Of a stretch of 64,000 bases of DNA, positions 1,842 through 63,712 are shown piece by piece. The first letter of the stretch is position 1; each line of letters opens with the position of its first letter. The stretch is from a virus, in IMG/VR virus record IMGVR_UViG_2648501629_000001, positions 37,474 through 101,473 of that record. One strand, 5' to 3'. A program made the position numbers and the translations under genes. Below the pieces are notes generated by a model. That model saw nothing but the letters and a program-made list of their open reading frames with translations, searched no databases and was not told where the DNA came from.

Positions 1842-1882
1842 TAAACAAAAGTATTGAAATAATGCTGATAATGTGATACAAT
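1842..1882 (+). promoter_or_regulatory. sigmaA-type promoter whose -35 is embedded in the repeated TAAACAAAAGTATTGAAA motif
   Basis: TTGAAA (1854-1859), 17 bp, TACAAT (1877-1882) with TG upstream of the -10. Confidence 0.75.
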
Positions 1883-1916
1883 TGCGTTATCAGCATTATT
1901 AATGTAGGTGAATTAT

Positions 1917-2996
1917 ATGAGTATGAATTCTGCTAAGGTAAAGGAATACCTAAAAGAAGATGTAGAAAGAATCGAAAGACTCCTAGAAGAAGTTGGATGC
2001 CATATGTTATGGCGTACTGGAGATGAAGTTAGGGGAGCGCCTCCTAATGGTCGCAATCATACCGCAGTCTCTGTTAACACTGAGACTTTGTTCTGTAGAG
2101 TGTATGGAGAGGGAGAGACATTTCGTGGTGACATCTTTCAACTAATTAGCATGTTTAGAAAAGAAGAGTTTAAGCAATCATTCGCTTTTACGAAATCACT
2201 ATTTGGTCTTGGTGGCAAGTTTGTAAAAGATAACAGGAAAGACCCATTGGCATTATTTAAGAATATCAGAAAACAGCATAAGATTATAACTGATATCAAT
2301 GAGGTTGAAGTACCTAAGTTTGGCATGGAGTCGTTAGCTGACTTTGTTTTACTGCCTCATATTAACTTGTTCTATGAAGGTATCACTACTCAGACACAAG
2401 AGATATTTAAGGTAGGATATGACCCTTACTTGGACAGAGTGATTTTCCCTCACTTCGCTTATGACGATATAAACGCAGTCGTTGGAATAACAGGGAGAAC
2501 TCTTAGAAGTAAGGTTGAAATGGAAGCATTTAAAATCCCTAAGTATTGGAATTATATTAAGGGATACAAGAAGATGTATAACTTATATGGGTTTAGCCAT
2601 TCCTTACCTTTCATAATCAAGAGTGGTAAGATTATCATTTTTGAAGCAGAAAAGAGCGTTATGAAGCAATGGTCGCAAACAAGGAATAAAGGATTCTCTG
2701 TATCTGTTGGTGGTCATGAAATATCAGAGGTTCAAGTCCAATTGATACTCAAAGAGACTCCTGCCGACACAGAGGTAATTATTGCTTTTGACCGTGACGT
2801 ACAAGATATGAAAGATGACGATGGAAACCCTATAGGAGAACAGTATCTCATTAAGCAATGTAAGAAGTTTTCAAAGTTCAGAAAGGTGTCCTATACGTGG
2901 GACGCTAATAATTTGCTAGAAGAAAAGGATGCTCCAATTGACAAGGGTGTTAAAGTATTCAACGAATTATTAAACAGTAGAAAGGTTATTAATTAA
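1917..2996 (+). CDS. dnaG: DNA primase (DnaG/TOPRIM)
   Basis: RVIFPH...VVGITGR, NLYG, IIIFEAEKS and VIIAFDRD TOPRIM motifs; start taken at ATG 1917 after AGGTG. Confidence 0.88.
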   Translation: MSMNSAKVKEYLKEDVERIERLLEEVGCHMLWRTGDEVRGAPPNGRNHTAVSVNTETLFCRVYGEGETFRGDIFQLISMFRKEEFKQSFAFTKSLFGLGGKFVKDNRKDPLALFKNIRKQHKIITDINEVEVPKFGMESLADFVLLPHINLFYEGITTQTQEIFKVGYDPYLDRVIFPHFAYDDINAVVGITGRTLRSKVEMEAFKIPKYWNYIKGYKKMYNLYGFSHSLPFIIKSGKIIIFEAEKSVMKQWSQTRNKGFSVSVGGHEISEVQVQLILKETPADTEVIIAFDRDVQDMKDDDGNPIGEQYLIKQCKKFSKFRKVSYTWDANNLLEEKDAPIDKGVKVFNELLNSRKVIN

Positions 2997-62634: not shown

Positions 62635-62668
62635 TTAAGTTAACACCACCTTGTTTCAATAATTTTGC

Positions 62669-63712
62669 TTAATCTTGGCTCTTATTCTTCTCTTTCATAG
62701 CCTTTAGTTTAGCACGAATCTCAGCTTTAGATTTAGGCTTAACATAATGCTTTTGAGTTGTCGATACATCGGAATGGTTAAGGAATTCCTGAGCCAGTGT
62801 TAAATCCCCTGTATCCTCTACGATTAGATTCCCTTTTGTTTTACGCAGACAGTGAGGATGTAAATCTTGTAAGCCTAGAATGTGTCCAATCTTTCTTACA
62901 CGCATATAAATAGAAGTCTGAGACATCTTCTTATATTCTCCACCATGCTTTACGATAAACAACGAATCAACCTCGCAGTTATCCATATTCTTACGCATCT
63001 CTAGCCATTCTTGAATCAATAGCTTTGCCTCTTCTTCAAAGGCGACCTCAACAATTTTTCCACGTTTCTCTCGGATATCCACAAACATCATTTCTTCCAA
63101 ATCCAATGACGAAAGAGTTAATTTTGATATTGCTCCATTTCGGTTAGCTGAATCAACCATAATATGCCAAATCAATAAGTCTTGAATGTCATACTTTCTA
63201 CCCTTCTCTTTCTTATAATCCTCGTGCAAGAAATTGGTAACAGTATCAACTTGGTCTCTTGTTAGGAAGTAATGACTGATAAGCTTCTCATCGTTTGCTC
63301 CCTTCATTCTGTCCAACTTGCGGTCAAATGGGTGAACGTCAATGACTTTACGCTTTACTGCCCAAATGTAATACGCTGAAACCGCAGAAAGCTTTGTATT
63401 GATTACTTTCTTGTTGTTCCCCAACGTATCTTGACAGAATCCAATGAACCCTTCCATAATATCAACGGCATCCTTCATAAACTCATCATCATGAATGAAA
63501 ATGTTCTCCCATTCTTCCTCAAGATATACAAGGAATTGATTGAAGTAATTTTGATAGACTTTGTATGTTGTCTCTTTTACATCTTTATTTTTAATAATGT
63601 TCGAGCGAAGATATTTATCATACGCCTTTACACTCTTTTGGTTTATCTTTGCAATCTTATCTTTTGTAAAGTATCGCTTATAAACTCTCTTTTGTTCTGC
63701 CACTAAATTCAC
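62669..63712 (-). CDS. tyrosine recombinase (YomM-like) in the tail module
   Basis: R (SANRNG), K (EKRGK), HxxR (HCLRK), H (LNHS) and Y (KHY) catalytic set. Confidence 0.9.
   Translation of the reverse strand: MNLVAEQKRVYKRYFTKDKIAKINQKSVKAYDKYLRSNIIKNKDVKETTYKVYQNYFNQFLVYLEEEWENIFIHDDEFMKDAVDIMEGFIGFCQDTLGNNKKVINTKLSAVSAYYIWAVKRKVIDVHPFDRKLDRMKGANDEKLISHYFLTRDQVDTVTNFLHEDYKKEKGRKYDIQDLLIWHIMVDSANRNGAISKLTLSSLDLEEMMFVDIREKRGKIVEVAFEEEAKLLIQEWLEMRKNMDNCEVDSLFIVKHGGEYKKMSQTSIYMRVRKIGHILGLQDLHPHCLRKTKGNLIVEDTGDLTLAQEFLNHSDVSTTQKHYVKPKSKAEIRAKLKAMKEKNKSQD

Follow-up and report, generated by a model that had tools for sequence, protein, structure and literature searches.

What reads a short, asymmetric word that recurs at gene boundaries along both arms of a phage genome, and at what step of gene expression does it act? 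The question is raised by a 64,000-nucleotide stretch of virus DNA (the window), which corresponds to bases 37474-101473 of one 136,570-bp virus record, IMGVR_UViG_2648501629_000001. The answer that we favor, judging it probable on the sequence comparisons below, is that the word is a predicted operator, and that its copies form an array of the type of the SPbeta repeated element (SPBRE) and the phi3T repeated element (Phi3TRE), directed to the phage's own homologue of the MrpR/SroF repressor family and including stoperator-like sites within operons. Copies of the word are located by window positions, and positions in the full record are marked as genome positions.

The motif array is real, larger than first noted, and far beyond chance. 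A first-pass annotation of the window had listed about 24 copies (19 on the + strand and 5 on the − strand) of an asymmetric 18-bp motif. A search with this 18-mer, allowing up to 3 mismatches, recovered every listed coordinate among 26 matches in the window, against 0.38 expected, and none of 100 shuffled sequences reached 26. Of these matches, 21 lie on the + strand (1842-39857) and 5 on the − strand (47480-62671); the same search of the whole genome gave 70. A weight matrix made from the copies returned, at a cut-off of at least 14 bits, 27 sites in the window and 71 in the whole genome, and the same scan of three second-order Markov controls gave 0-1 matches. The column information content of the copies showed that the conserved unit is 20 bp, ATTAAACAAAAKTATTGAAA, so that the 18-bp motif was found again but had missed two bases at its upstream end. 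The 20-bp word contains CAAAAGTATT as its core and a AAACAAAA tract; beyond the two extra bases no further conserved block was seen 5′ of it, and the downstream side showed nothing except a weak "TA" at 17 bp. The word is non-palindromic and has no dyad.

Position and orientation were then assessed over the 71 weight-matrix sites, using a simple set of gene calls based on open reading frames (ORFs). Fifty-seven sites are intergenic, in a genome of which non-coding sequence makes up 11% (binomial p 3e-41), and a co-orientation heuristic placed 69 along the direction of transcription; the other two sit at strand-switch points and likewise face their downstream gene. Both the strand bias and the intergenic enrichment therefore hold genome-wide, and the orientation is not random. 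The proposal that every copy lies at a gene boundary was right as a trend but not as a rule, because the copies at 4732-4751 (+; a weaker one, 22 bits, in ORF 3653-4951) and 22008-22027 (+; a near-perfect variant with T at base 10, 30.7 bits, co-oriented with ORF 21625-22245) are intragenic, and the one at 36232-36251 (+) overlaps a gene end. The upstream stop codon TAA, said to supply the first bases often, does so in only four window copies (2994, 27012, 34042, and 62654), and two more overlap a stop codon. The longest stretches free of copies are the region from the terminase to the tRNA genes, two giant tail genes, and a 7.6-kb island within the window (39858-47479). Outside this record, an exact 17-mer scan of viral contigs gave only single chance matches in unrelated contigs, and pattern scans for tandem pairs gave 0 matches in viral and genome contigs, where near-identical records may be masked.

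The copies differ in what follows them. In about 21 copies, which we call the P class, a −10-like hexamer stands 16-18 bp beyond TTGAAA or TTGACA, and there is space for a leader. The first-pass annotation had described a −35 box plus a −10 at 17 bp for seven copies; all seven belong to this class, have these elements, and are among the best promoter-like matches in 21000-40500. They are all on the + strand, and their −10 hexamers, each at 17 bp, are TACAAT for 1840-1859 (where TTGAAA is the −35 and a primase-like gene follows at 1908), TATGAT for 5303-5322, a TG-preceded TAATAT for 15649-15668 (before a 690-aa gene at 15748), TACAAT for 21574-21593, TATAAT for 29775-29794, TACAAT for 32365-32384, and TATAAT for 35170-35189. 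The copies at 29775 and 32365 are each the first of a tandem pair, and the latter is the only T-variant in the P class. Long inverted repeats that are particular to each gene, with arms of 10-16 bp, come after many P-class promoters. They start near the −10 or the transcription start site (TSS) and end at the next box or at the Shine-Dalgarno (SD) sequence; they include window 1860-1905 and genome 33138-33175, 103200-103235, and 131915-131950, among others. Some of these repeats hold the −10 in their 5′ arm, in which case only read-through RNA, or the DNA itself, could fold into the hairpin.

A second class, R, comprises 18 clear copies and several borderline ones and has no −10. Here 0-10 nt (median 2) separate the word from the SD, and the start codon is 11-27 nt away. 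These 18 or more copies placed directly before a ribosome-binding site agree with the earlier statement that the motif is not simply a promoter. On the + strand of the window the R copies begin with 2992-3011, whose TAA is the stop codon of ORF 1908-2996 and which is followed by a start codon after 11 nt, and 9894-9913, with a start codon at the same distance. At 26379-26398 the SD is 4 nt and the ATG 17 nt downstream, and the apparent −10 contains the start codon; at 27010-27029 the TAA is again the upstream stop codon. The copy at 29856-29875, a TTAAAA variant and the second of its pair, lies 14 nt before an NrdI-like gene, that at 32440-32459 follows a perfect leader hairpin with an SD 1 nt downstream, and the TTAACA variant at 34040-34059 supplies the stop codon of an NrdF-like gene. 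The copies at 38954-38973 and 39838-39857 (the latter a TTAAAA variant) are also of this class. On the − strand, those at 50902-50921 (second of a tandem pair) and 55169-55188 (after a hairpin) are of a late-arm TAAGC subtype, and 62654-62673 provides the stop codon of a YomM-like recombinase gene, 19 nt before a 2460-aa tape-measure gene.

The remaining window copies are mostly degenerate or stand in unusual settings. On the + strand, one ending in TTGACA (6054-6073) overlaps the stop codon of ORF 5341-6057 and is followed by an inverted repeat with 10-bp arms, and one ending in TTGATA (17831-17850) precedes the gene for a DnaE-type polymerase and is also followed by an inverted repeat. The 36232-36251 copy, a weak variant of 15 bits at the end of gene 35246-36265, reads TTGACA-17-TAGAAT and is the first of a tandem pair whose second member, 36311-36330, follows a hairpin and has an SD-like AGGAGG 7 nt beyond its own end. 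On the − strand, a perfect copy without a −10 (47480-47499) lies 73 nt before an endolysin gene with two hairpins in between, and a degenerate one (50991-51010) is directly upstream of a separate TTGACA-17-TACAAT promoter. Eleven tandem pairs were counted; the first copy is usually at a promoter, the second follows 53-116 bp later, often with a gene-specific hairpin between the two, and no helical phasing of these spacings was evident. The two classes also differ at base 10 of the word, which is G in 20 P copies and T in 1, and G in 8 R copies and T in 10 (Fisher p 8e-4), so that the classes are under partly different constraints.

The geometry of the R copies raises the alternative that those next to an SD act in the mRNA, as a translation enhancer or standby site, the target of an RNA-binding protein, or a processing site, with the P copies being a separate use of the same word. 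The short distance to the SD, the T enriched at base 10 of the R class, the sense-strand location of all copies, and the lack of helical phasing would all suit this, as would the 11 tandem pairs, in which the second copy, usually directly before the SD, puts the word back into the transcript. However, the best-conserved matches are the P copies, which are upstream of their own TSS, the word is unable to pair with the SD, and compact gene spacing alone would force any intergenic site to lie beside an SD. In addition, SPbeta boxes that abut an SD are bound as DNA by MrpR (PMC10516654). We consider a role in the mRNA improbable.

The relation of the word to promoters is itself variable. Its commonest register resembles a proximal UP-element-like A-tract joined to a −35 hexamer, and a sigma-A-type pattern (−35, −10 at 16-18 bp, TSS upstream of the SD) fits about 21 copies; it fits neither the R copies nor two conserved copies in odd registers. 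At a 3D-domain gene, 7 nt separate the end of the word from an extended −10 downstream, and at an AAA_18 gene it lies in the spacer of a TTGACT-17-TAAAAT promoter, where the TTAAAA variant of the word is the −10. At 50991 and at two sites outside the window, the word is just upstream of a separate −35.

A candidate for the factor that reads the word is encoded 15 kb upstream of the window, at genome 22256-23461. This 401-aa protein is an MrpR/SroF-family homologue with a tyrosine recombinase fold (CB plus CAT domains); it matches both MrpR domains of Pfam, PF22822 (2.9e-17) and PF22823 (5.1e-8), above the curated cut-offs, is 27% identical to SPbeta YopR/MrpR over 294 aa, and matches the solved MrpR structure (PDB 8a0a, E 1.3e-14). 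Public sources label it a "phage lytic cycle repressor MrpR family protein" of the Bacillus cereus group. A YopP homologue is encoded just upstream; tblastn against SPbeta gave no match for YopQ, YopN, or AimR, and a Rap-like TPR protein is encoded elsewhere (window 44325-45437). Like most of its relatives (395-440 aa), the homologue exceeds SPbeta MrpR (325 aa) by an N-terminal extension of about 100 aa, and this extension (the first ~100 codons, genome from 22256) had no family match. At the promoter of mrpR itself, one box unit covers the −35, another, which is degenerate, covers the spacer and −10, and in this phage a third lies downstream; relatives down to 43% MrpR identity keep the first two. 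Such overlapping boxes are the layout expected for autoregulation.

To see how the word behaves across phages, we picked eight relatives through the MrpR homologue in a protein database (93, 81, 55, 51, 48, 43, 39, and 37% identical) and took ~10-21 kb around the homologue from each. They include B. cereus-group contigs, a Viridibacillus contig, the Bacillus assembly CP097785, whose MrpR homologue sources list also on a B. velezensis plasmid, and metagenome contigs; a locus search with the MrpR homologue protein alone found nothing in viral or genome contigs. All eight carry the word family, with 85 sites on the gene strand versus 3 on the other, and both P-type and R-type copies are present. 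In orthologous intergenic regions the flanks have diverged but the word persists, odd registers included; before the AAA_18 gene even the TTAAAA variant is retained, and most of the aligned relatives share the two unusual registers. The word also changes genome-wide in a lineage-specific way: one lineage has ACC in place of ACA; another has TAAGC and TTGACA; two have TTGCAA in place of TTGAAA; and CC replaces GT in the most distant. Three more distant phages with MrpR homologues, Geobacillus E3, Psychrobacillus Perkons, and Brevibacillus Sundance, carry strand-specific repeated words of their own beside their genes, a different one in each. In the Sundance record, 16 bipartite strand-specific words precede almost every small early gene between 121.5 and 134 kb; each consists of a GTGTG(A/T)TTTT block, 11-12 nt, and then TACATTAATATATGAAG.

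These comparisons bear on a second alternative, in which the word is only an RNA polymerase module, an UP-like A-tract plus −35 read by host sigma-A or by a phage sigma-like protein, that has spread as a promoter cassette and whose copies without a −10 are decayed or are remnants of recombination linkers. Such cassettes are known as promoter early stem-loop (PeSL) elements of T4-type phages, which are read by the host polymerase and have been proposed to drive module shuffling. The array shares with them a conserved promoter word and, after many P copies, a gene-specific stem-loop between small genes. The ~21 copies with a −10 exactly 16-18 bp after TTGAAA or TTGACA, the coincidence of the best promoter-like sites in 21000-40500 with the word, the nearly fixed G at base 10 of the P class, and the stability of the word across genera with a conserved polymerase would all be explained, and the bases before the hexamer fit an A-rich UP-proximal pattern. 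A 347-aa protein (genome 125081-126124, −) that matches the "sigma factor" family phrog_5767 and has weak similarity to SigH region 4 could serve as the reader; it has no sequence match in PDB.

Yet 18 or more copies leave no room for a −10 and TSS before the SD and are nevertheless kept at orthologous positions whose flanks have diverged; at the 3D-domain and AAA_18 genes the word falls 7 nt from the −10 or in the spacer, where polymerase reads no specific sequence; and the lineage-wide base changes affect positions upstream of the hexamer. The sigma-like protein was set aside as an explanation because it cannot account for copies without room for a −10. As for shuffling, PeSL elements differ in that many copies here have no promoter, and synteny breakpoints against close relatives lie 3-60 bp from a copy in some cases and >800 bp away in others; a role of the copies as recombination linkers is thus neither supported nor excluded. 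Overall, we regard a module for polymerase alone as unlikely.

The word could also be the operator of another phage protein, for example the YopP-like or YomM-like recombinase, the XRE regulator found next to mrpR in relatives, the XRE regulator at window 43413, or the sigma-like protein. Three proteins with a tyrosine recombinase fold are encoded (the MrpR homologue, the YopP-like, and the YomM-like protein), XRE regulators are present, an XRE gene in relatives (found there only, by homology) is divergent from and adjacent to mrpR, and relatives chosen through MrpR cannot separate it from tightly linked genes. XRE and ribbon-helix-helix (RHH) proteins, however, normally bind symmetric sites as dimers, which does not suit an asymmetric word without a dyad, and the matches of the YopP-like and YomM-like proteins are to ordinary Phage_integrase/Xer models. 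A multi-copy asymmetric box has been demonstrated by experiment for the MrpR family only, and the densest cluster of box units is at the mrpR promoter. We give such another binder little credence. The first-pass annotation had proposed that one phage protein occludes promoters and road-blocks read-through at the motif, with the SPbeta repeats and L5 stoperators as precedents, or that the motif acts at the RNA level; of these, a single phage DNA-binding protein that recognizes the oriented box at promoters and between genes has the best support here. As the binder it had named the XRE at 43413, the RHH protein, or a recombinase-fold repressor; the last is the right kind, although neither the XRE regulator, the weakly matching RHH protein, nor the YomM-like recombinase within the window is a likely binder, and the likely one, the MrpR homologue, is encoded outside it.

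The known elements to which the array is most readily compared are those of SPbeta and phi3T. SPBRE was found at intergenic sites of SPbeta by in silico work in 1999 (PMC10516654), and in 2023 MrpR, a catalytically inactive protein with a tyrosine recombinase fold, was shown by chromatin affinity purification sequencing (ChAP-seq), electrophoretic mobility shift assays (EMSA), and reporters to bind this asymmetric element and repress lytic genes (PMC10516654). Our scan of the SPbeta record gave ~13 SPBRE copies, all co-oriented with transcription and placed over the spacer and −10 of promoter-like sequences; several abut an SD directly (yonX, yopV, and yopM), the same geometry as in our R class. 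The two systems thus share an asymmetric A/T-rich box at distant intergenic sites of a ~135-kb SPbeta-type genome, co-oriented and overlapping a promoter or abutting an SD, and an MrpR-family protein encoded next to a YopP-like recombinase. They differ in copy number (~71 here versus ~13), in the presence of copies throughout the structural (late) arm here, and in register, since SPBRE covers the spacer and −10, whereas the box here mostly supplies the −35 and many copies have no promoter. The repressor here also has its extra N-terminal stretch of ~100 aa, and in place of YopQ or an arbitrium homologue, neither of which was seen by tblastn against SPbeta, there is the Rap-like protein.

In phi3T, SroF binds as a monomer that nearly encircles an asymmetric 26-bp A-tract box and does so at multiple genome sites (preprint 10.1101/2025.11.27.690993). 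A monomeric clamp on a long asymmetric A-tract box fits the 20-bp word with its AAACAAAA tract. SroF is inactivated by a small LexA-controlled antirepressor, Sar, which corresponds to YopT in SPbeta (10.1101/2025.11.27.690993), and here too a small gene that appears to be under SOS control lies near the repressor module. The only two intergenic GAAC-N4-GTTC (LexA/Cheo-type) boxes of the genome, at 28693 and 28729, are 36 bp apart in one promoter, which is itself preceded by a copy of the 20-bp word; they precede a 79-aa gene (region genome 28693-29012) located 5 kb downstream of mrpR. LexA-type boxes were present in 7 of 7 relatives searched, mostly as a pair, and before a homologue of the small gene in 5. 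Unlike Sar, the 79-aa protein has no sequence similarity to YopT/Sar, and its confident all-beta model (pLDDT, the predicted local distance difference test, 91.5) had no Foldseek match in PDB at E <= 0.001, YopT included. By analogy we guess that it is a candidate SOS-controlled antirepressor, and it remains a lead.

Several observations weigh against assigning the box to the MrpR homologue. The box is almost unchanged among phages whose MrpR proteins are only 39-55% identical, which would also fit recognition by the conserved host polymerase and contrasts with the SroF proteins of SPbeta and phi3T, which are 30% identical and read different boxes. Because the relatives were chosen by their MrpR homologue, the co-occurrence of box and MrpR is partly circular. 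The UP-like A-tract plus −35 of the commonest register, the base-10 difference between the classes, and the proximity of R copies to the SD, which could point to a role in mRNA, belong here as well. The box is unrelated in sequence to SPBRE (published boxes are phage-specific, so that this is not disqualifying), and the 26-bp phi3T box can be aligned with the word only over its ATTAAG start. Finally, four RNA-seq runs with the same species label had 0-2 reads mapped to genome 18001-38000; this indicates that their strains lack the phage, and the runs are hence no test of expression or of the TSS. Two DNA runs, in contrast to these, point to strains that carry it.

Taken together, the variable register, the retention of copies without a promoter, the concerted changes within lineages, and the cluster at the mrpR promoter point to a phage-specific DNA-binding factor rather than to pure recognition by the host polymerase. 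Since an asymmetric A-tract word of 20 bp is in keeping with a monomeric clamp such as MrpR/SroF, and a homologue of that family is present, we favor an SPBRE/Phi3TRE-type operator array, and we also count for it that the copies skip the island with XRE, Rap-like, and accessory genes, a kind commonly expressed from a prophage. Most likely, then, the array belongs to the already known MrpR/SroF repeated-element system, and what is new is a much denser array with a different box.

As we picture it for lysogeny, a monomer of the MrpR homologue would clamp each asymmetric box, and its binding would block both initiation and elongation. At the ~21 boxes that contain a −35, and at the few that cover a spacer or −10, the bound repressor would shut out RNA polymerase; where boxes lie between packed genes (18 or more copies), and at the second copies of the 11 pairs, it would serve as an additional operator or would road-block read-through. 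The outcome would be silencing of both arms of the 136-kb genome.

The intra-operon copies and the second copies of tandem pairs would follow the same logic as the stoperators of mycobacteriophage L5. In Cluster A phages such as L5, the repressor gp71 has dozens of asymmetric intergenic sites in both arms, in one orientation, some at promoters and others inside operons; it is a small helix-turn-helix (HTH) protein with 13-bp sites, and a polar block to elongation has been shown for L5. The array resembles this in that both arms have many asymmetric sites, located in short intergenic stretches and all oriented alike with respect to transcription. It differs in that the candidate binder has a recombinase fold and an elongation block is a matter of analogy, so that the likeness is one of working alike and not of membership. 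More tentatively, the promoter-less copies may be true polar road-blocks, with a clamp-type MrpR at ~70 oriented boxes stopping elongation as well as initiation across a 136-kb Firmicute phage (possibly a phage-plasmid), convergent with actinobacteriophage stoperators by an unrelated fold. The same rather speculative proposal extends to the shared box, which could define an unusually broad cross-immunity group spanning the Bacillus cereus group and neighboring genera, given that phages with repressors only 39-93% identical have it in nearly the same form.

The genome as a whole is that of a distant SPbeta-type siphophage of the Bacillus cereus group, judging from its genes. By tblastn against SPbeta it encodes homologues of YopP, YopR, YorM, YorI, YorJ, YorL (the DnaE-type polymerase), NrdI/E/F, YomI (tape-measure), YomM, YonG, and the HU-like YonN, and its terminase is 46% identical to SPbeta YonF; no close relative is listed in the phage collection, where near-identical records may be masked. 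The motif-free island where the two arms meet (39858-47479) ranks second in length among the genome's gaps between copies. Besides the endolysin gene, it includes four genes that are likely expressed in the lysogen: an RHH-like ORF with a weak match (42500-42838, −), the XRE/RstR-like regulator, an ordinary HTH_3 protein (43413-43748), the Rap-like protein with RapH_N and TPR domains (44325-45437), and a C92 peptidase (45860-46360, −). The YomM-like tyrosine recombinase (62669-63712) matches Xer/Phage_integrase models and aligns to YomM; it is not of the repressor family.

We also considered a promoter read by a YonO-type phage RNA polymerase, which was dropped: no YonO match was found in the genome at E <= 1, and the 690-aa protein encoded directly upstream of the DnaE-type polymerase (window 15748-17820, +), which matches only phrog_1735 (PHROG, function not annotated; E 1e-182) and had no NCBIfam match, is unrelated to YonO. 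The 347-aa sigma-like protein adjoins the HU-like YonN homologue, where SPbeta has its YonO RNA polymerase, and it may represent another way of achieving late transcription. The late arm also carries a cluster of seven tRNA genes (Trp, Tyr, Gly, one odd 4-base-anticodon call, Ser, Asp, and Asn) at genome about 122458-124240 (−). Replication-initiator-like and Alp7A/actin-like partition proteins are encoded at L004:11299-12312 (+) and L004:17428-18555 (+), respectively (L004:5458 is genome about 122458), and homologous MrpR genes are found on stand-alone contigs of 115-148 kb, one of which is a named plasmid; the element may persist as a phage-plasmid.

If the assignment to the MrpR homologue is correct, the array would provide a regulon map, with promoters, operators, and a likely lysogeny-expressed island, for widespread and unstudied 120-150-kb SPbeta-like elements of the Bacillus cereus group, and it would predict an operator sequence for an MrpR-family repressor distinct from the two already studied. 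The P/R dimorphism and the tandem leaders of promoter, hairpin, and box offer handles with which road-blocking could be separated from RNA-level control, and the pair of repressor and box could serve as an orthogonal switch in Bacillus. For the repressor family, it would mean that integrase-shaped repressors can police whole genomes through many oriented sites and not just a handful of promoters.

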